47,736 nt of DNA from the IMG/VR virus record IMGVR_UViG_2778261460_000004. One strand, given 5' to 3'. Source of the stretch: a virus (Duplodnaviria > Heunggongvirae > Uroviricota > Caudoviricetes). This document shows, piece after piece, positions 1,659-19,987 of this stretch (within the stretch, counting starts at the first letter, position 1; every line of letters begins with the position of its first letter). The notes under the pieces were generated by a model that ran no database searches, had not been told where the DNA came from, and saw nothing but the letters and a program-made list of their open reading frames with translations. Made by a program: the position numbers and the translations under genes.

Positions 1659-4139
1659 TTAAAAATCAGCCTGACTCGGGATCAGTTTTTGTATCGTAGC
1701 TGTAACGTATTTTGCCTGGTGACGGGCGTCATCCAGTGCATTGTGGCGCACGCCTTCGAATGGAATAACGGTTCTGGCATCAAAGTCGATTGTTTTTCCC
1801 AGCTCAACGATTGTGCGTACATCGCGATCGTTGTAGTAGCGCCACGGGCAGGGGATGTCCAGACGTTCGTATGAGGTGCGCAAAATTGCGTTATCGAAAG
1901 TCGCACCATTACCCCATACCTGAACGAATTTTTCATCTGAGTATTCGTTGATGAACTCCCGAAACTGCGAAAGGGCATCCTTCAGTTTTACCTGGTCTGT
2001 TAAAATGGCAGCTCTGGCTTCACTGGACTGCTTCAGCCACCATTCGATGGTTCCACCGTCAGGAACAGCCCCTGTATTCATTGCGTCAGTCAGACTGATA
2101 ACGATATAAAATACTGGCCCGATTTCCCCTGTTTGTGGGTCGAAGAAAACCGCACCAATAACCACGATGGGCGCATTGGTGTTGGTTCCCATTGTTTCAA
2201 GGTCGATCATCAGGTGGTACCACACTCTGCTGGTGGATGTGATAACGTGATGACCGTTCACCGCAATTAAGGAATCTGCCGTCTCGCCAGTTTCATTATC
2301 GCTGGCGTGGTCCTGAGCGCTGCCAGCATTCTCCTTGTGTGGATGTTCAGCGCCTTCCATTTCCTCCGGATCATTTTCCTGAACTTCAACCTGATTCTCT
2401 TCATCGAATGTTTCCTGGTATGTTGCGTCGCCCATCACCGCACCACAATCAGGGCAGTTGCCGCCACCGAGCTGACCGCAGGCGGTGCAGACTTTTTCCG
2501 CTTCCTGTTGCGCTACCGGTTCGGATTGTTTCGTTTCTGGTTCGTTTTGTAACGCATTTGGGCTGTTTTGTTCCGCTTTTGGGTCGTTCTGTTCCGATTC
2601 TTGCTGGTTCTGGTTCACAGAATCGCGGGTTTCAATCCCCTTCACCCATTTCGGATCATTCGGGTCGCTAATCCCTGCAACAAATTCTCCGCGAGAGGCA
2701 GCAAGCAACTTATCGGCGTCAGGCTGGCTGATATTGGCTGCCTGCATAATTTTGTTTACTTCGTCAGCGGTAACTTTTACCGGCTCCGGTTGTGCGGTCG
2801 TGTCAGATGCACCAGTATTTTGTTGTGAACCTGAGTATGTGCCGTTTTTGCGGGCAAAATATTCTTCTTTCGTGATTTCAGTAGCCCCTGCAGCCAGCGC
2901 CTTATTCAGACCAGAAAGTTTGTTTGCACGACCATATTTTTCGCCATCCTTATCGGTGAAAAGGAAGTAGAACGGCCCCTCACGCTCTACAGATGGTTCA
3001 GTTTCCAGCGTGCTTTCATTTTTTTGGGTATCAGATACTTCAGTTTCCACTGCATCAGTTTGTGCTGCTGACGGCTGGAGAATATCAGTAGTGTTCTGGT
3101 CTGTTTCTTCATCCTCAAACACGCCCTTTGTCGCCAGGTATTCAGTGATGTATTTGTTCAGTGCCACGGGATCTTTGTGAATGTCGATCGGACGCTCACG
3201 GACAAGGCCAAAAATAGTCTGACGGTCGTAGCGAACGGCATCGGGTTGTTTGCGCATTGATGCGGAAATGCGCTTCCAGTCTTCGCGATCTTTGTCGATA
3301 ACTTCATTTTTTGCCCAACGATGGATGCTGCCGTCAATGTTTCCGGCATTAATATCGCCAGGCCACAGAGCGTAGGCCAGTTCTTCATCCAGCGTTTTCC
3401 ATGTCTGCTTGTATTCGCGACGAATGGCGGTAGTGGCGGGGTTGATTTTTCCTGCTGAGTTTTCAGTGTGCTGCCGGTTGACTCTGGCGCGGGCAAGATC
3501 AACAACAGACGTGTATTTCCCGGTTTCTTTGCGTTCGGCTTCGCGACGTTTTTTCCAGGTGCGTAATTCTGTCTGGATCTCAGGCCATTTTGCGCCCGGC
3601 TTACATTTATGTTTAACCCACCCGATGGCGAACAGCTTTAGTTCTGAATACATGACGTTAACTTCAGGCATTTTCATCAGTGCCTCAACGATATGCCCGT
3701 CGAATGTTGCCATGTCCTCCTGCAACAATTCCTGTGCACTAATCACCATATCAACGGTGATGTTTTCACATGTACCGAACTTAACCAGGACCGCGTTCTG
3801 TACTTCAAGGGACAGCTTGTCAAAATTGACGTTCATCGGATCGGATTCTGGTTCGACCGGAACAAAGGAAGCGCCTTCCTCATCCCAGCGGTTTTCCAGC
3901 ATATATTCGGTATCCCAGGAGTCGATGGCAGGGCGGGGCATGCCGGGTTTATCCTCGCAGACAAGAAATTTATAAGCGCAGTCCTGAGCAGCCGGATATT
4001 GCTCCAGGAATTGCCAGGTAAATTTGGCACGGGCGCGGCGTTCGTCGCCGGCTTCAATGGCAGTGGCTACAGCGACTGCACCTTCTTCCTTTATTGCCTG
4101 TTCGTCCGGAATGGCGGCGCAAATAAAGACTTTACTCAT
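1659..4139 (-). CDS. Large prophage exonuclease with C-terminal DnaQ-like DEDDh 3'-5' exonuclease domain (exodeoxyribonuclease VIII-like / YdfE-like)
   Basis: 826 aa. C-terminal motifs LMIDLETMG (Exo I, D-x-E), [12 protein letters not shown] (Exo II) and [13 protein letters not shown] (Exo III, H-x4-D). Central Cys cluster [16 protein letters not shown] (zinc-ribbon-like) and Gln/Glu-rich low-complexity linker. No RecT/Bet partner seen. Confidence 0.7.
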
Positions 4140-4777: not shown

Positions 4778-4836
4778 AAAAAGGGCGGCAGAGCAGTCAC
4801 GAAGTAAAACTGATACCGCCAAACGTCACCAGAAAA
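4778..4836 (-). ncRNA. dicF: DicF small regulatory RNA (ftsZ-targeting sRNA) with 3' terminator-like hairpin
   Basis: Reverse complement of 4784-4836 reads TTTTCTGGTGACGTTTGGCGGTATCAGTTTTACTTCGTGACTGCTCTGCCGCCC followed by a T-run, matching the recalled 53-nt DicF with about 1 mismatch; position between ydfA-type genes and dicB matches the known dicB operon. Confidence 0.75.
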
Positions 4837-9333: not shown

Positions 9334-11337
9334 ATGATTATGAGTGAAAATGATACAACCCCAAAGAAGTCTACAAGCCAGATTAACAAAGCGGTATTCT
9401 TTACATCTGCTTTGCTAATTTTCCTTCTTGTCGCCTTTGCCGCCGTATTCCCGGATGTCGCCGACAAAAATTTTAAACTACTTCAGCAACAAATCTTCAC
9501 GAATGCCAGCTGGTTCTACATACTTGCTGTGGCCCTGATTTTACTGAGCGTCACGTTCCTTGGACTCTCACGTTACGGTGATATAAAGCTGGGCCCAGAC
9601 CATGCGCAGCCTGATTTCAGCTACCACTCCTGGTTCGCGATGCTTTTTTCGGCAGGGATGGGGATCGGCCTGATGTTCTTTGGCGTTGCCGAACCTGTGA
9701 TGCATTATCTTTCGCCACCTGTCGGCACTCCAGAGACCGTTGCGGCAGCGAAGGAAGCCATGCGCCTGACGTTCTTCCACTGGGGTCTGCACGCATGGGC
9801 AATTTATGCCATCGTGGCGCTGATTCTGGCCTTTTTCAGTTACCGTCACGGTCTGCCTTTAACGCTGCGTTCTGCGCTCTATCCCATTATCGGCGATCGC
9901 ATTTACGGGCCTATAGGCCACGCGGTTGATATCTTCGCCGTGATAGGCACTGTCTTTGGCGTTGCAACATCGCTGGGTTACGGTGTATTGCAGGTGAATG
10001 CCGGTTTGAACCATCTTTTCGGCGTGCCCATCAATGAAACGGTACAGGTCATTTTGATCGTGGTCATCACGGGGTTAGCGACGATTTCGGTGGTGTCCGG
10101 CCTGGACAAGGGAATACGCATCCTGTCTGAGCTTAATCTGGGCCTGGCGGTGTTGCTCCTGGCGCTGGTCTTGTGCCTGGGTCCCACTGTGCTTCTGCTG
10201 AAGTCATTTGTGGAAAATACGGGTGGTTATCTGTCGGAACTGGTGAGTAAAACGTTCAACCTTTACGCGTATGAACCCAAGTCGAGCAACTGGCTGGGGG
10301 GCTGGACATTATTATACTGGGGATGGTGGCTTTCATGGTCGCCGTTTGTAGGTATGTTCATTGCACGCGTTTCCCGCGGCAGGACAATTCGTGAGTTCGT
10401 GACTGGCGTGTTGTTTGTTCCCGCCGGCTTTACGCTCATGTGGATGACGGTGTTTGGAAACAGCGCCATCTATCTCATCATGAACCAGGGCGCCACTGAC
10501 CTCGCCAATACCGTTCAGCAGGATGTTGCGCTTGCCCTGTTTAATTTCCTGGAGCATTTCCCGTTCTCTTCCGTGCTGTCATTCATTGCAATGGCGATGG
10601 TCATCGTCTTCTTTGTAACGTCTGCTGATTCGGGGGCAATGGTTGTGGATACTCTGGCATCAGGTGGGGTGGCAAACACGCCCGTCTGGCAGCGAATTTT
10701 CTGGGCATCGCTCATGGGCGTTGTTGCTATTGCCCTGCTGATCGCAGGGGGGCTGAGTGCGTTGCAAACCGTAACGATAGCGAGTGCATTGCCCTTCTCA
10801 GTTATCTTATTAATATCCATATACGGACTGTTAAAAGCCCTGCGTCGGGATTTGACCAAGCGTGAAAGCCTTAGCATGGCGACTATTGCTCCTACGGCTG
10901 CACGTAACCCAATTCCCTGGCAGAGAAGGTTACGCAATATCGCGTATTTGCCGAAGCGCTCTCTTGTGAAACGTTTTATGGACGACATTATCCAACCCGC
11001 CATGACGCTGGTTCAGGAGGAACTTAACAAGCAGGGAACGATAAGCCACATCAGTGACGCCGCCGAGGATCGTATTCGCCTTGAAGTCGATTTGGGCAAC
11101 GAGCTGAATTATATATATGAAGTGAGGCTTCGCGGGTATAACTCACCGACCTTCGCGCTCGCTGCGCTGGATAATGATGAGCAGCAGAGTGAACAACATC
11201 GATATTATCGCGCTGAAGTCTATCTCAAAGAGGGCGGCCAAAATTATGATGTAATGGGCTGGAATCAGGAACAGCTGATTAATGACATACTGGACCAGTA
11301 CGAAAAACACCTGCACTTCCTGCATCTGGTTCGTTAA
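9334..11337 (+). CDS. BCCT-family transporter (BetT-like choline/glycine betaine transporter)
   Basis: 667 aa; multiple TM segments; BCCT signature WTLLYWGWWLSWSPFVGMFIARVSRGRTIREF; long cytoplasmic C-terminal extension as in BetT. Confidence 0.85.
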   Translation: MIMSENDTTPKKSTSQINKAVFFTSALLIFLLVAFAAVFPDVADKNFKLLQQQIFTNASWFYILAVALILLSVTFLGLSRYGDIKLGPDHAQPDFSYHSWFAMLFSAGMGIGLMFFGVAEPVMHYLSPPVGTPETVAAAKEAMRLTFFHWGLHAWAIYAIVALILAFFSYRHGLPLTLRSALYPIIGDRIYGPIGHAVDIFAVIGTVFGVATSLGYGVLQVNAGLNHLFGVPINETVQVILIVVITGLATISVVSGLDKGIRILSELNLGLAVLLLALVLCLGPTVLLLKSFVENTGGYLSELVSKTFNLYAYEPKSSNWLGGWTLLYWGWWLSWSPFVGMFIARVSRGRTIREFVTGVLFVPAGFTLMWMTVFGNSAIYLIMNQGATDLANTVQQDVALALFNFLEHFPFSSVLSFIAMAMVIVFFVTSADSGAMVVDTLASGGVANTPVWQRIFWASLMGVVAIALLIAGGLSALQTVTIASALPFSVILLISIYGLLKALRRDLTKRESLSMATIAPTAARNPIPWQRRLRNIAYLPKRSLVKRFMDDIIQPAMTLVQEELNKQGTISHISDAAEDRIRLEVDLGNELNYIYEVRLRGYNSPTFALAALDNDEQQSEQHRYYRAEVYLKEGGQNYDVMGWNQEQLINDILDQYEKHLHFLHLVR

Positions 11338-11385
11338 CAGCAACATGCCGCCACAGAGGCGGCATTTATTTATCCCGGCTGCAAT

Positions 11386-12678
11386 ATGAGGGAATGCAGA
11401 ATGATTTCACGCTGGAAATGGATGCTGAAGCAGACATTTAAAAAACTATGGTTCAGGGCAACGTTATTCGCAATTGTCGCAATAATAACGGCCCTTTTAT
11501 CAATTCTTTTTAAATCAATGATACCTGAGTCGGTTTCCGTGAAGGTTGGTGCGGAAGCAGTCGATAACATTCTGAACATACTGGCATCGAGTATGCTGGC
11601 CGTGACCACATTTTCGCTGAGCATCATGGTCACAGCCTACGGTTCAGCCACTACTAATGTGACTCCCAGAGCTACTCGTTTAGTTGTTGAAGACGTCACC
11701 ACACAAAATGTACTGGCCACCTTCATCGGTTCTTTTCTCTTCAGTCTGGTAGGGATTATTGCCCTCAATATGGGAGCTTATGGAGAAAGGGGGAGAGTCA
11801 TTTTATTCATTGTAACACTGGTTGTCATTGCCTTAATCCTCATCACATTGCTTCGCTGGATACAGCATTTGACCTCTCTGGGGAGGGTTGGTGAGACAAC
11901 GGCAAAAGTAGAACAGGCGGCCATCGAAACATTTATTGCGAGAGCAAGAAATCCCTGTCTCGGCGGATATCCATGGCTTGAGAACAATGAACAGCCGAAA
12001 GGAACGGTTGCAGTTTATCCGAAAAAGATTGGCTATGTTGAATATGTTGATATGGTGAAACTCAGCAAGCTGCTGACCAATGATCCCCGTCATGTATACC
12101 TCGTGGCGCAGCCGGGCAGTTTCATACATCCGTCCACGCCAGTTTTGTACCTGAGTCAGGGCCAGGAGTCATCAATCAGCACCGATTTACTTGAGACGAT
12201 TATTGTCTCGGATGTACGTTCATTTGCTCAGGACCCCCGATTTTGTCTTAGCGTCATGGCCGAAATAGCCTGCCGAGCCCTTTCCCCCGCAGTGAACGAT
12301 CCTGGAACCGCCATTGATGTCATTGGCAGAGGTGTACGTATACTTTCCGCTTACGCGCAGAATAAATCTGATGAAATAGAAGTGAAATATCCTTCTGTAC
12401 ATGTTGCACCACTTCAGAATAACGATCTACTTGAAGACTTTTTCTCACCTGTTGCGCGCGATGGTGCCAGTATGAGGGAAATTCAGATAAGGGTACTTAA
12501 AGGACTGTCGATGCTGAGTAAGGGTTGGCCTGGAATTTTTGCTGAAGCCGCACAAACCCTAGCATTTGAAACATTAGAGCATGCTACTCGTGCTGACCAT
12601 ATAGATTCTGACAGATATCTAATAAAATCAATTTATTATAATTTATTTAGTGGCGAAGATTCTAATAAAAAACCATAG
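11386..12678 (+). CDS. Membrane protein with N-terminal TM helices and large soluble domain (DUF2254-like)
   Basis: 430 aa; about 4-5 hydrophobic helices in first 170 aa; about 50 bp downstream of the BCCT gene on same strand. Family assignment from memory, moderate. Confidence 0.55.
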   Translation: MRECRMISRWKWMLKQTFKKLWFRATLFAIVAIITALLSILFKSMIPESVSVKVGAEAVDNILNILASSMLAVTTFSLSIMVTAYGSATTNVTPRATRLVVEDVTTQNVLATFIGSFLFSLVGIIALNMGAYGERGRVILFIVTLVVIALILITLLRWIQHLTSLGRVGETTAKVEQAAIETFIARARNPCLGGYPWLENNEQPKGTVAVYPKKIGYVEYVDMVKLSKLLTNDPRHVYLVAQPGSFIHPSTPVLYLSQGQESSISTDLLETIIVSDVRSFAQDPRFCLSVMAEIACRALSPAVNDPGTAIDVIGRGVRILSAYAQNKSDEIEVKYPSVHVAPLQNNDLLEDFFSPVARDGASMREIQIRVLKGLSMLSKGWPGIFAEAAQTLAFETLEHATRADHIDSDRYLIKSIYYNLFSGEDSNKKP

Positions 12679-13473: not shown

Positions 13474-14532
13474 ATGGAAAGTATCGCGCTATACAACTGG
13501 GCTACAAGTGTTTTGTCTTCTATTACAGAAGATTTGAATGAACATTACTATAAAGAAATTAATGGCAGTCTCGCTTTACAATTTGAAACTACAGATATTG
13601 TGAACGCTAGAGCTTTAGTTTACTCAGAGCGTGATGAACCACCAAGGCATGCTATATCAATCACATATAAATTAATCCGATCATTATATGATGATGCTGC
13701 TGCTTTTGTAGATTATGTTCACTCTGGTAAAGATGATGAAGTTTATGATATGTGGTTTAATGGGCAAACCAACTTTAGCACTTTAAGAAATGAGTGGGAT
13801 AAAACTAATTTCACTAAAAACATTTTTCTAGCAGGTTTGACATGGGTTTTTTTTCATGAGTTAGGACACTTAACTCAGGGCCATTTATTTATAAGGAACA
13901 GGTATAGTTCCGAAATTAATGTAATGTCTGAAATTCACTTAAATAATTTATCATCAGACAATAACGATGCATCTGCCATTTGGCACGCAACGGAACTTGC
14001 AGCCGATTATTTTTCCACATACATGTGTGTAATAGAAATTGTTCGACAACTTGCCATTAATGAAGATTGCGAATTGGCAATTTGCTTTTTGACATGTGGT
14101 ATATCATTAATGTTACATCGTTTTCAAGGCGAAAAACTTTATGAGGTTCAAACAGAACCAGTTGGTACACATCCTAGGCCATTCGTAAGGCTTGAAATGA
14201 TCGTGCCTTTAATTTTTGAAATACTTTCTATTCCAAACACAGATCAACGTCGTAGTTATGTGCTTGCAGGTGGTGAATCGGCCAACAGGGTTGGACTTTT
14301 CTGGATAAGAAAGACTGGAATAATGGAGGGTATTCCTGAACATTATCTTATCGAAGGTACATTGAACCGGCCTGGAGTTGTTGAGTATTTGAGGCATATC
14401 ATTTTTATTTGGGATAGCATTTCATCTGAAATCTCTGAGATGTTCACTTTTGGCACAAAAAAAATGCTTCTTAACTTCACGAATGTACTTCGGACTACAC
14501 CGGATTTGAATGATGATACACAGGAAAAATAA
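13474..14532 (+). CDS. Putative cytoplasmic zinc metallopeptidase-like protein (HExxH motif)
   Basis: 352 aa; motif VFFHELGHLTQGH at residues 126-138 (HExxH plus downstream His); no signal peptide; AT-rich, atypical composition for the host. Confidence 0.5.
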   Translation: MESIALYNWATSVLSSITEDLNEHYYKEINGSLALQFETTDIVNARALVYSERDEPPRHAISITYKLIRSLYDDAAAFVDYVHSGKDDEVYDMWFNGQTNFSTLRNEWDKTNFTKNIFLAGLTWVFFHELGHLTQGHLFIRNRYSSEINVMSEIHLNNLSSDNNDASAIWHATELAADYFSTYMCVIEIVRQLAINEDCELAICFLTCGISLMLHRFQGEKLYEVQTEPVGTHPRPFVRLEMIVPLIFEILSIPNTDQRRSYVLAGGESANRVGLFWIRKTGIMEGIPEHYLIEGTLNRPGVVEYLRHIIFIWDSISSEISEMFTFGTKKMLLNFTNVLRTTPDLNDDTQEK

Positions 14533-15044
14533 TGCTGATCAGTGTTAATTAACAATTCGCATAATATAGGGGGGCTGTACCGGAACCGCCAGAAATTTCT
14601 GGCGCAGTGAATTAGTCGAATTTTGAAGCATGTTTGGCATGTGCTGACGTGTACGTTTATGGTGCCGTGAGTGAGAATTTATCCGTACCAGCTATGTGAG
14701 ACGCTGCGGTCAGTGATTTTTCGTTCCAAACGGCCATTTCTTTACTGTCCGGTTGACGGCGGTCTTACGTACAGGCAGACAACCGCAAACATTATGCGTC
14801 ACGGAAATTTCTGCGGTTCTGGCGTACAACCCCAAATTAACGTCCGCTCATCGCTCAAAGCGGACTAGAAGGTTAGCTTGCGTCGGACTTGGCGTATTTA
14901 AAGAAGTACTGGTGGTGACTGGTTGTTGTGTTCCATTTCTACAGAACAAAATCACAGAAACTATACCCAATAGTTGTATCTCATCAATGATGAGACAGCC
15001 TCATATTTATCAGGACTGGTGTACGTCCAATACAGGAGGTTGTC

Positions 15045-15134
15045 GTGCTGGTTCTCAAATGTGCGCTGGCTATTGCAGCTGTAATGGCAATTTATTGTCT
15101 TGCTGTTGTTCTTATGGATCGCCTTTCTGATTGA
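15045..15134 (+). CDS. Small hydrophobic peptide (29 aa), type-I-toxin-like
   Basis: GTG start 5 nt after AGGAGG; product MLVLKCALAIAAVMAIYCLAVVLMDRLSD (single predicted TM helix); below the ORF-track size cutoff. Confidence 0.3.
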   Translation: MLVLKCALAIAAVMAIYCLAVVLMDRLSD

Positions 15135-15345
15135 TTTTATATTGGCGAGGTAACGGGAGTTAAGTAGAATGGCTGCGGGTGCTTGAGGCTATCTGTCTCA
15201 GGCATGAACACCAAAGGCAGATAGAGAAAAGCCCCAGTTAACATTACGCGTCCTGCAAGACGCTTAACATTAATCTGAGGCTCAATCTATGAACGGCAAA
15301 TCTAGGTTAGCCTCTTACGTGCCGAAAGGCAAGGAGAAGCAGGCT

Positions 15346-15501
15346 ATGAAGCAGCAAAAGGCGATGTTAATCGCCCTGATCGTCATCTGTTTAACCGTCA
15401 TAGTGACGGCACTGGTAACGAGGAAAGACCTCTGCGAGGTACGAATCCGAACCGGCCAGACGGAGGTCGCTGTCTTCACAGCTTACGAACCTGAGGAGTA
15501 A
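15346..15501 (+). CDS. hokD: Hok-family type I toxin HokD (RelF)
   Basis: 51-aa product MKQQKAMLIALIVICLTVIVTALVTRKDLCEVRIRTGQTEVAVFTAYEPEE matches recalled HokD; in-frame upstream extension (from 15289) may correspond to a mok-like frame; antisense Sok-like RNA expected upstream but not delimited. Confidence 0.85.
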   Translation: MKQQKAMLIALIVICLTVIVTALVTRKDLCEVRIRTGQTEVAVFTAYEPEE

Positions 15502-15667
15502 GAGACCAGGCGGGGGAGAATCCCTCGCCACCTCTGATGTGTCAGGCATCCTCAACGCACCCGCACTTAACCCGCTTCGGCGGGTTTTGTTTTTTCCTAG
15601 CATTCTGGTTTACAATTCGCACGCCAGCCTGAACAACTGGCACCTGCTGCGCCAGCAGAGACAACCG

Positions 15668-19677: not shown

Positions 19678-19753
19678 GGCCCTTTAGCTCAGTGGTGAGA
19701 GCGAGCGACTCATAATCGCCAGGTCGCTGGTTCAAATCCAGCAAGGGCCACCA
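19678..19753 (+). tRNA. tRNA-Ile2-like (anticodon CAU; ileX/ileZ-like), could formally be Met
   Basis: 76 nt GGCCCTTTAGCTCAGTGG...CTCATAA anticodon loop...TTCAAATCC...AAGGGCCACCA; one mismatch in anticodon stem. Confidence 0.8.
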
Positions 19754-19754
19754 A

Positions 19755-19831
19755 TCGCCACTAGCTCATCAGGAAAGAGCGTCAACCCTTTAAGTTGAGT
19801 GTGCGAGGTTCGAGTCCCCGGTGGCGGTCCA
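19755..19831 (+). tRNA. tRNA-like gene, atypical (anticodon loop CCUUUAA, possibly Lys-UUU or a degenerate Arg tRNA)
   Basis: Acceptor stem TCGCCAC/GTGGCGG, T-loop TTCGAGT, 3' CCA present; C at position 33 and one T-stem mismatch make the assignment uncertain. Confidence 0.5.
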
Positions 19832-19833
19832 GT

Positions 19834-19909
<76 letters not shown>

Positions 19910-19912
19910 TAT

Positions 19913-19987
<75 letters not shown>

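Follow-up and report, generated by a model that had tools for sequence, protein, structure and literature searches.

The type I toxins TisB, Ibs, Ldr, ShoB, DinQ and ZorO are peptides of 18–35 aa with one hydrophobic helix that are often omitted by annotators, and their genes are marked by long processed 5′ leaders, mapped antisense or divergent small RNAs (sRNAs) and poor translation in growing cells. MgrB, AcrZ, KdpF, MgtS and PmrR are small regulatory inner-membrane proteins; more generally, annotation routinely passes over small membrane proteins, several of which have proved to regulate transporters, sensor kinases or cell lysis. The hok/sok system functions on plasmids (R1 parB) and at other chromosomal loci in the absence of any gene like the one described here. 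That gene encodes 29 codons and precedes hokD in the IMG/VR virus record IMGVR_UViG_2778261460_000004, a stretch of 47 736 nt (the window) that corresponds to a Qin-like lambdoid prophage. The original prediction, made from the nucleotide sequence alone, held that hokD is intact in this prophage, that the relBE pair preceding it in the Qin prophage of Escherichia coli K-12 is absent, and that a single-helix peptide ORF with a consensus Shine–Dalgarno sequence stands instead about 200 bp upstream, perhaps as a second Hok-like peptide or as a new small membrane protein. We find that the small ORF is, to judge from its pattern of variation, a genuine gene, although its identification as a toxin is not supported. 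The coordinates of all features are collected in Table 1.

The positions of the small ORF and its Shine–Dalgarno sequence are as predicted, with the stop codon 211 nt before the hok ATG, and the frame shows clear coding constraint. A total of 216 complete copies of the gene was gathered from IMG/VR contigs, metagenomes, genomes, phages and plasmids; 214 retain exactly 29 codons, the other two have a stop-to-Cys change, and neither frameshifts nor premature stops are found among the 216, so that the disruption in close homologues that would have argued against the gene is not seen. GTG and ATG start codons alternate between copies, with GTG in 214 of the 216, and the Shine–Dalgarno sequence reads AGGAGG, GGGAGG or AGGAGA in all lineages. 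Synonymous changes account for 23 of the 44 distinct single-site variants, where 30 % would be expected (binomial P=0.0016); each of the 21 replacements is conservative (A/V/T, V/I/L, M/V/I/T, D/E/N, R/H, L/F, S/T and C/F/G). Within the main lineage the nucleotide diversity at codon positions one, two and three is 0.010, 0.019 and 0.074, respectively, and that of the flanking non-coding DNA is about 0.05. In an alignment of lineages whose flanks are unrelated, the core that is conserved consists exactly of the promoter, leader, Shine–Dalgarno sequence and ORF, of which the ORF is conserved best. The intact copies, the synonymous excess and the codon-position bias of the diversity together indicate that this ORF is a genuine and selectively maintained gene. 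Its product has a grand average of hydropathicity of 1.81 and an uncharged stretch of 19 residues (residues 6–24), a composition from which it would be expected to insert into the membrane.

The gene is widespread. The block from 14840 to 15180 is present at a coverage of at least 80 % in 1683 of 5426 complete E. coli genomes, the 29-aa gene is found in the laboratory strains B/BL21/REL606, C and ATCC 8739, and inducible phages, among them Tritos and mEp460, carry it as well. Among 119 copies with enough flanking sequence, hok/sok follows the gene in 106, and in the other 13 it is followed by an opposite-strand DUF1971 gene, homology ending about 15 nt after the stop codon. A version that is 79 % identical and has an ATG start is intact on all 135 sampled virulence plasmids (pINV) of Shigella and enteroinvasive E. 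coli, where hok itself is lost and its promoter and leader are reduced to about 90 nt, followed by the AT-rich icsP promoter. This copy retains the promoter and Shine–Dalgarno motifs, and its comparison with the closest prophage copy gives a ratio of non-synonymous to synonymous differences (pN/pS) of 0.25. On pWR100 (NZ_CP037924.1) it occupies 90908..90997 on the minus strand (locus L140, 3501..3590), 199–288 nt upstream of the icsP P1 transcription start (90709), in the region in which H-NS silencing and VirB anti-silencing are studied.

Two weak tblastn hits led to a 34-aa homologue, MSDDISLVMEGALAVIAVVGVYCLVVFLMERLGN, which is 54 % identical and 79 % similar to the 29-aa protein over 28 residues without gaps. 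The corresponding DNA identity is 63 % (pS 0.64, pN 0.27, dN/dS about 0.23), and nine of the 15 identical residues are encoded by different codons in the two branches. This gene lies about 245 nt upstream of hok in prophages of O157:H7, O145, O111 and other Shiga toxin-producing E. coli (STEC); 674 genomes contain it, the median being three copies per genome, and the NCBI Prokaryotic Genome Annotation Pipeline (PGAP) annotates it as a hypothetical protein; all four copies of this branch that were examined adjoin hok. Both branches conserve a hydrophobic core with the motif ALA...YCL...LM(D/E)R in a protein of 29–34 aa, the uncharged 19-residue stretch being in the same register in the 29-aa, 34-aa and pINV versions, and in both the gene directly precedes hok/sok or what remains of hok, in the interval of a lambdoid prophage that runs from the replication module to the DUF968, RusA and Q genes. 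Neither relatives outside Escherichia and Shigella nor a larger ancestral gene were found in a phmmer search of 1.84 billion representatives with the 30-aa translation from the window (nine hits, all at least 86 % identical), and scanning one genome per species for a degenerate DNA pattern returned only Escherichia, Shigella and a few contigs of gut metagenome-assembled genomes; a protein search with the 40-aa read-through variant matched only its own cluster. By these sequence comparisons the 29-aa and 34-aa forms are branches of one small family confined to Escherichia and Shigella, and since what is left of the hok leader still follows the pINV copy, the family appears to have stood originally just upstream of the hok/sok cassette.

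We note two further elements in the O157-type loci. A tiny hydrophobic ORF of 25 codons, MSRPDAFAGVAIAIAFLVYVICRWG, lies just upstream of the 34-aa gene (L222, 2370..2447) and has a 27-aa counterpart, MNWPEAFAITGVAMAIAFLVYVICRWG, in a second locus (L221, about 2363..2446); it overlaps the stop codon of the preceding gene (ATGA) and has only weak PHROG hits. A near-perfect palindrome without a T-run, CCGTATGGGAATTCCCATATCGG (L222, 2590..2612), is located between the 34-aa gene and the hok promoter; it has no counterpart in the 29-aa branch and might bind a protein or form a hairpin in the RNA.

Published data provide evidence for expression. The 34-aa gene corresponds to XECs145 of a ribosome profiling (Ribo-seq) survey of O157:H7 strain Sakai, where in lysogeny broth (LB) it has 79.1 reads per kilobase per million (RPKM) for RNA and 346.1 RPKM for Ribo-seq, with a ribosomal coverage value of 4.35 and 99 % coverage, and in brain heart infusion (BHI) 121.3 and 150.1 RPKM, respectively, with a ribosomal coverage value of 1.14; it was predicted to be an inner-membrane protein with one transmembrane helix (Huecker et al., 2017; PMC5597208). 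The 34-aa homologue is thus efficiently translated during normal growth in Sakai. The 29-aa gene corresponds to ECB_01533 of REL606, the coordinates having been matched through locus L139 and a single-nucleotide polymorphism annotated as −19/+193 between hokD and ECB_01533. In Ribo-seq data from the long-term evolution experiment its mean normalized footprint count is 4.7, compared with 39.8 for hokD and about 0.5 for silent prophage neighbours (PMC9645810), which is a weak positive signal for translation. Ribosome profiling, which had been put forward as one way of deciding whether the small ORF is expressed, therefore gives a strong answer for the 34-aa homologue and only a few footprints for the 29-aa form. 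Phage Tritos, resident in strain LF82, encodes an identical peptide behind a canonical promoter, and in the LF82 Tritos lysogen the HokD transcript, 3792-fold above the background of the prophage, greatly exceeds all other prophage transcripts (PMC9928086).

We consider it reasonably probable that the gene encodes a genuine 29-residue single-pass inner-membrane protein of the prophage that is expressed in the lysogen and acts by helix–helix contact with a larger membrane protein. The 29-aa branch would constitute a self-contained cassette of sigma-70 promoter, short leader, strong Shine–Dalgarno sequence and ORF, marking the right-hand edge of a cargo hot spot, and the peptide would be translated without harm to the cell, exerting its effect within the membrane by modulating a larger host or phage membrane protein with which its helix is in contact. 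It would not be a toxin restrained by antisense RNA, and it would be independent of hok, because the intact gene persists where hok has been replaced (next to DUF1971) or deleted (on pINV). The ALA and YCL motifs, the LM(D/E)R boundary and the regular spacing of small residues look like those of a packing helix rather than of a generic pore-former. The constant position upstream of hok may reflect shared descent in a mosaic region, which the persistence of the gene after loss of hok favours over a functional link. Several points weigh against this interpretation. The binding of a partner is suggested purely by analogy, and the product of the 29-aa gene, its location and its phenotype are predictions. 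The reads assigned to XECs145 may map to several prophage copies, and the frame reported by the authors is longer, at 54 aa (PMC5597208); the footprints on ECB_01533 are tiny in number, three reads or 3.0 transcripts per million in one sample (PMC9645810); and a differential RNA sequencing (dRNA-seq) map of strain M90T, in the condition tested, has icsP starts at 90709 and 90726 but no start close to where transcription of the pINV copy is predicted to begin, about 91027 (PMC7132871). The adjacency to hok of 106 of the 119 copies of the 29-aa gene, and of all four 34-aa copies examined, is also compatible with a functional link.

The suggestion that the small gene is a new type I toxin, damaging the inner membrane and with its synthesis blocked by an antisense or divergent sRNA, such that two type I systems lie in tandem, seems to us improbable. 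The peptide does have the size, hydrophobicity and predicted single helix of such toxins, the gene adjoins a bona fide type I system, two minus-strand promoter-like sites are present in the window, and a promoter-down −35 sequence, TCTCAT (13 of 132 copies), together with the weak GTG start could reflect selection against expression. However, the peptide gives no BLASTP alignment with HokD at E≤100, matches no Pfam family at E≤10 (compared with 1.2e-23 for the HokD control) and has no match in NCBIfam, PHROGs or PADLOC, type I toxin families included, so that a pair of Hok-like peptides is not what the locus encodes by these measures. Rfam yields nothing over or beside the ORF except the hok leader, and no sRNA, and the mRNA architecture of hok-type genes (overlapping mok frame, target for Sok, and 5′ and 3′ mRNA ends that pair) is not found around the small ORF. 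An antisense promoter on the minus strand had been proposed as a feature to look for, and TTAACT-18-TAAAAT (15163→15134) does face into the ORF in the window, but its −10 sequence becomes TGAAAT, TGTAAT or similar in most homologues, with loss of the critical second base. The other site, TTGATG-16-TATAGT (14987→14960), points away from the ORF; its transcript would begin farther left than that of the ORF, leaving no overlap between the two. A long or structured leader that might keep translation off is likewise not evident: the predicted leader is about 31 nt, a single-sequence fold pairs the Shine–Dalgarno sequence with the 3′ end of the ORF no better than in shuffled sequences (z=−1.07), and none of the 24 pairs predicted from an alignment fold of 20 diverse copies is compensatory. 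Internal complementarity is of chance length only, and short direct repeats shared by 14741..14800 and the hok leader were rejected as chance matches; an antisense ORF across the gene, called by RAST on pWR100, is not open in the window. Finally, the 34-aa homologue is efficiently translated in growing cells, as its coverage value in LB attests, whereas hokD in E. coli B has high RNA and few footprints. Because there is no toxin-family match, no conserved antisense promoter and no covarying structure, and because the homologue is well translated, the type I reading of the peptide is unsupported.

Two other explanations were considered. The gene could be a functional accessory of the prophage hok/sok, through read-through into hok, by modulating the insertion or activity of Hok, or by acting with Hok in phage exclusion or prophage maintenance. 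The position of both branches directly upstream of hok after divergence to 54 % identity fits this proposal, as do the lack of a terminator before the hok promoter 8 nt beyond the ORF, the ancestral linkage implied by the hok-leader remnant on pINV, and the prominence of the hok mRNA in the LF82 lysogen that carries the identical peptide (PMC9928086). We nevertheless think it unlikely, as many hokD-type loci lack the gene (matches of O157-type loci to the 29-aa block cover the hok promoter only), the gene stays intact and constrained after loss of hok on pINV and in the DUF1971 context, and common descent in a mosaic phage region explains the adjacency equally well. The self-sufficiency of hok/sok elsewhere also argues against it. 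Very improbable, in our estimation, is that the open frame is incidental and the DNA conserved as a promoter region, as a recombination boundary or simply as young prophage DNA. It is true that most copies are 90–99 % identical, so that the many sequences are not independent, that the lack of stop codons among the variants is by itself unsurprising (P=0.66), and that no transcription start was seen for the pINV copy; but the third-position bias and synonymous excess, the superior conservation of the ORF across lineages with unrelated flanks, the conservation of the 34-aa homologue as protein and not as DNA, and the Ribo-seq support for its translation are all contrary to this view. The broader proposal that the micro-protein is either a working partner of hok/sok or a stand-alone membrane effector expressed from the lysogen (a second toxin, a Hok modulator, or a superinfection-exclusion or phage-defence factor) we regard as rather doubtful. 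If true, the small gene and hok would be an unnoticed two-peptide membrane module in about 40 % of E. coli genomes, a relic of which would lie in the control region of icsP on each virulence plasmid of Shigella.

In the 29-aa branch the gene would be expressed from a promoter of its own. The family form of the −35 sequence is TTGAAT/G, and TTGAA(T/G)-17-CATATT precedes the ORF in 115 of 132 copies. The motif is kept even though at least four lineages and pINV are wholly different in the spacer and in the DNA farther upstream, and one further lineage has TTGCTG at the same distance. This conservation suggests that the motif acts as a sigma-70 promoter, with a predicted transcription start near 15014. 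In the window the −35 reads TCTCAT, as it does in 13 of 132 copies overall, and a change of three adjacent bases, TGA to CTC, separates the palindrome that overwrites it from the common quasi-palindrome TGAATCAATGATGAG. We infer that this palindrome arose by a template switch ('palindrome correction') and that the small gene's promoter is probably weaker in this prophage as a result. The palindrome also creates the leftward promoter-like TTGATG-16-TATAGT mentioned above. Homology to other genomes begins near 14840, and a hairpin at 14846..14869 opens the conserved block and coincides with the recombination junction to the variable cargo; other lineages are entirely without the segment 14846..14978. 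The hairpin was considered as a terminator for a leftward sRNA from the TATAGT box and rejected, as it has no T-run, its left arm is not maintained and it is missing in other lineages. As no terminator lies in the 8 nt between the stop codon of the small gene and the hok promoter, any transcript of the small gene should continue into hok, and such read-through would be expected to stop, likewise, at the hok terminator.

The hokD gene is intact, as had been stated, and its sequence is identical to that of K-12 hokD (WP_000813254.1 in the annotation of matching genomes). Besides the intact Hok ORF, the locus has its promoter and terminator and the whole of the leader and sok region. The match of the leader to RF01794 scores 110 bits, against a gathering score of 59, and extends over model positions 1–157 of 157; the start of the hok mRNA was set at 15177, the first position of this match. 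The 70-codon mok-like frame matches PHROG 251 (2.8e-33) and carries the label 'MokW-like' in phage records; since it shares the hok reading frame, a 70-aa N-terminally extended product is possible from the ATG at 15289. Alignment with the K-12 Qin prophage bears out the absence of relBE, identity beginning only 14 nt before the hok ATG, at 15332; K-12 has the relE stop codon 71 nt upstream of hokD and lacks the hok leader region. The window thus holds a complete hok/sok locus, and the K-12 relBE–hokD arrangement is likely to be a truncated, derived state, in which relBE probably replaced the hok promoter, leader, sok region and everything farther upstream. The description of the small ORF as standing instead of relBE thus probably reverses the history of the locus.

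The window as a whole has the order DUF977 gene, cargo block, the region described here, rem-like frame, DUF968, RusA, Q-type antiterminator and tRNA cluster, and DicF and the tRNA cluster confirm a lambdoid backbone of the Qin/STEC type. The small-gene family is generally found between the replication genes and the Q antiterminator gene in lambdoid prophages of the Qin/mEp460 type. The Lit-like protein has no Pfam hit, and the same cargo hot spot in other prophages holds RES-domain, Lit, ParA-like, QueH or DUF4145 genes.

Table 1. Features of the window, with coordinates, strand and supporting details
Feature	Coordinates	Strand	Details
DicF sRNA	4783..4834	−	Rfam, 75 bits
BCCT (betaine/carnitine/choline) transporter and DUF2254 membrane protein	9334..12678		Cargo between DUF977 gene and Lit-like gene
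Lit-like protein	13474..14532		352 aa; low G+C; HELGH (HExxH) metalloprotease motif; weak PADLOC match to phage-exclusion protease Lit (E=1.5e-5)
Left part of conserved block	14846..14978		Common to main-lineage copies; diversity 0.057, neutral-like
Promoter of small gene (putative)	14979..15007	+	−35 position 14979..14984; 17-nt spacer; −10 CATATT at 15002..15007
Perfect 15-nt palindrome	14980..14994		CTCATCAATGATGAG; read from sequence; overwrites −35
Shine–Dalgarno sequence	15034..15039	+	AGGAGG; 5-nt spacer to GTG
29-codon gene	15045..15134	+	GTG start; encodes MLVLKCALAIAAVMAIYCLAVVLMDRLSD, predicted single-pass membrane peptide
hok promoter	15142..15170	+	Predicted, sigma-70-like; TTGGCG-17-TAGAAT
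hok mRNA leader (mok start; Sok antisense target)	15177..15351	+	Rfam RF01794 'sok'
mok-like frame	15289..15501	+	70 codons; in-frame N-terminal extension containing hokD; from ORF list
hokD	15346..15501	+	51-aa Hok/Gef type I toxin; Pfam HOK_GEF (PF01848), 1.2e-23
Intrinsic terminator of hok transcript	15569..15586	+	Stem AACCCGC..GCGGGTT, then T-run; conserved in K-12
Four-tRNA cluster	19678..19984		Downstream of Q-like gene

The expectation that the small ORF would escape standard annotation pipelines is correct in part. PGAP has no feature for it in 39 of 40 sampled genomes and the current RefSeq version of REL606 omits it too, but the gene had already been recorded as ECB_01533 and WP_000960667.1, and Prokka calls the pWR100 copy as CP037924_00134. 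In the RefSeq re-annotation of REL606 there is a gap in the numbering between ECB_RS08105 and ECB_RS08095, where GenBank had ECB_01533, which seems to have been dropped by the pipeline; the 34-aa homologue was given late locus tags in O157 genomes, such as ECH74115_RS32895. The gene itself had thus been deposited before, as a hypothetical or membrane protein, and the 34-aa relative had been reported as a novel ORF undergoing translation. A full-text search with the peptide sequences found no paper, the peptide is missing from the supplementary data of the 'Cryptic Bacterial Microproteome' paper, and a 2026 preprint surveying Hok does not discuss the upstream ORF. The unity of the 29-aa and 34-aa forms as one family, their tie to hok/sok, the conserved private promoter and the pINV copy upstream of icsP appear not to have been described previously. 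A function for the small gene would bear on the interplay of prophage and host and on the reading of hok/sok loci, and the pINV copy is situated in a model region for H-NS silencing and VirB anti-silencing. For annotation, PGAP should call the 29-aa form as it already does the 34-aa form, and the K-12 relBE–hokD arrangement is clarified as one that is probably truncated and derived.

Comparison with known systems places the closest relatives among deposited sequences. ECB_01533 of REL606 (ACT39199.1) and WP_000960667.1 are the same gene, encoding 29 aa with 83–100 % identity at the same position upstream of hokD in Qin-like prophages; they show only allelic differences from the gene in the window, and the entries are without function. 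XECs145 (=WP_001278460.1, WP_001278450.1) is homologous, with the same 19-residue core and YCL...LM(D/E)R motif immediately upstream of a prophage hok, but it differs in having an acidic N-terminal extension of five residues and an ATG start, in its location within a co-directional phage gene array without the TTGAAT-CATATT promoter, and in the spacer to the hok promoter, which is different and contains the GGGAATTCCC palindrome. The resemblance to Hok/Gef (PF01848) and to hok/sok/mok is that of a small prophage-borne peptide with an N-terminal membrane helix that adjoins a true member; unlike Hok/Gef, the small peptide has no sequence similarity to that family and no periplasmic C-terminal domain with a conserved Cys, and unlike hok/sok/mok the gene has no mok-like overlapping frame or elements to pair the 5′ end of the mRNA with its 3′ end, and Rfam matches nothing across the ORF. 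It shares small size, one predicted hydrophobic helix and frequent omission from annotation with TisB, Ibs, Ldr, ShoB, DinQ and ZorO, whereas the long leader, antitoxin sRNA and poor translation of those systems were not found for it. MgrB, AcrZ, KdpF, MgtS and PmrR have no sequence relationship to the peptide and belong to the chromosomal core, whereas the small gene is phage-borne; by analogy, however, it resembles them in size, in its single predicted helix, in a spacing of small residues (A7/A11/A15 and A9/A12) that would suit helix packing, and in what may be constitutive, non-toxic translation.

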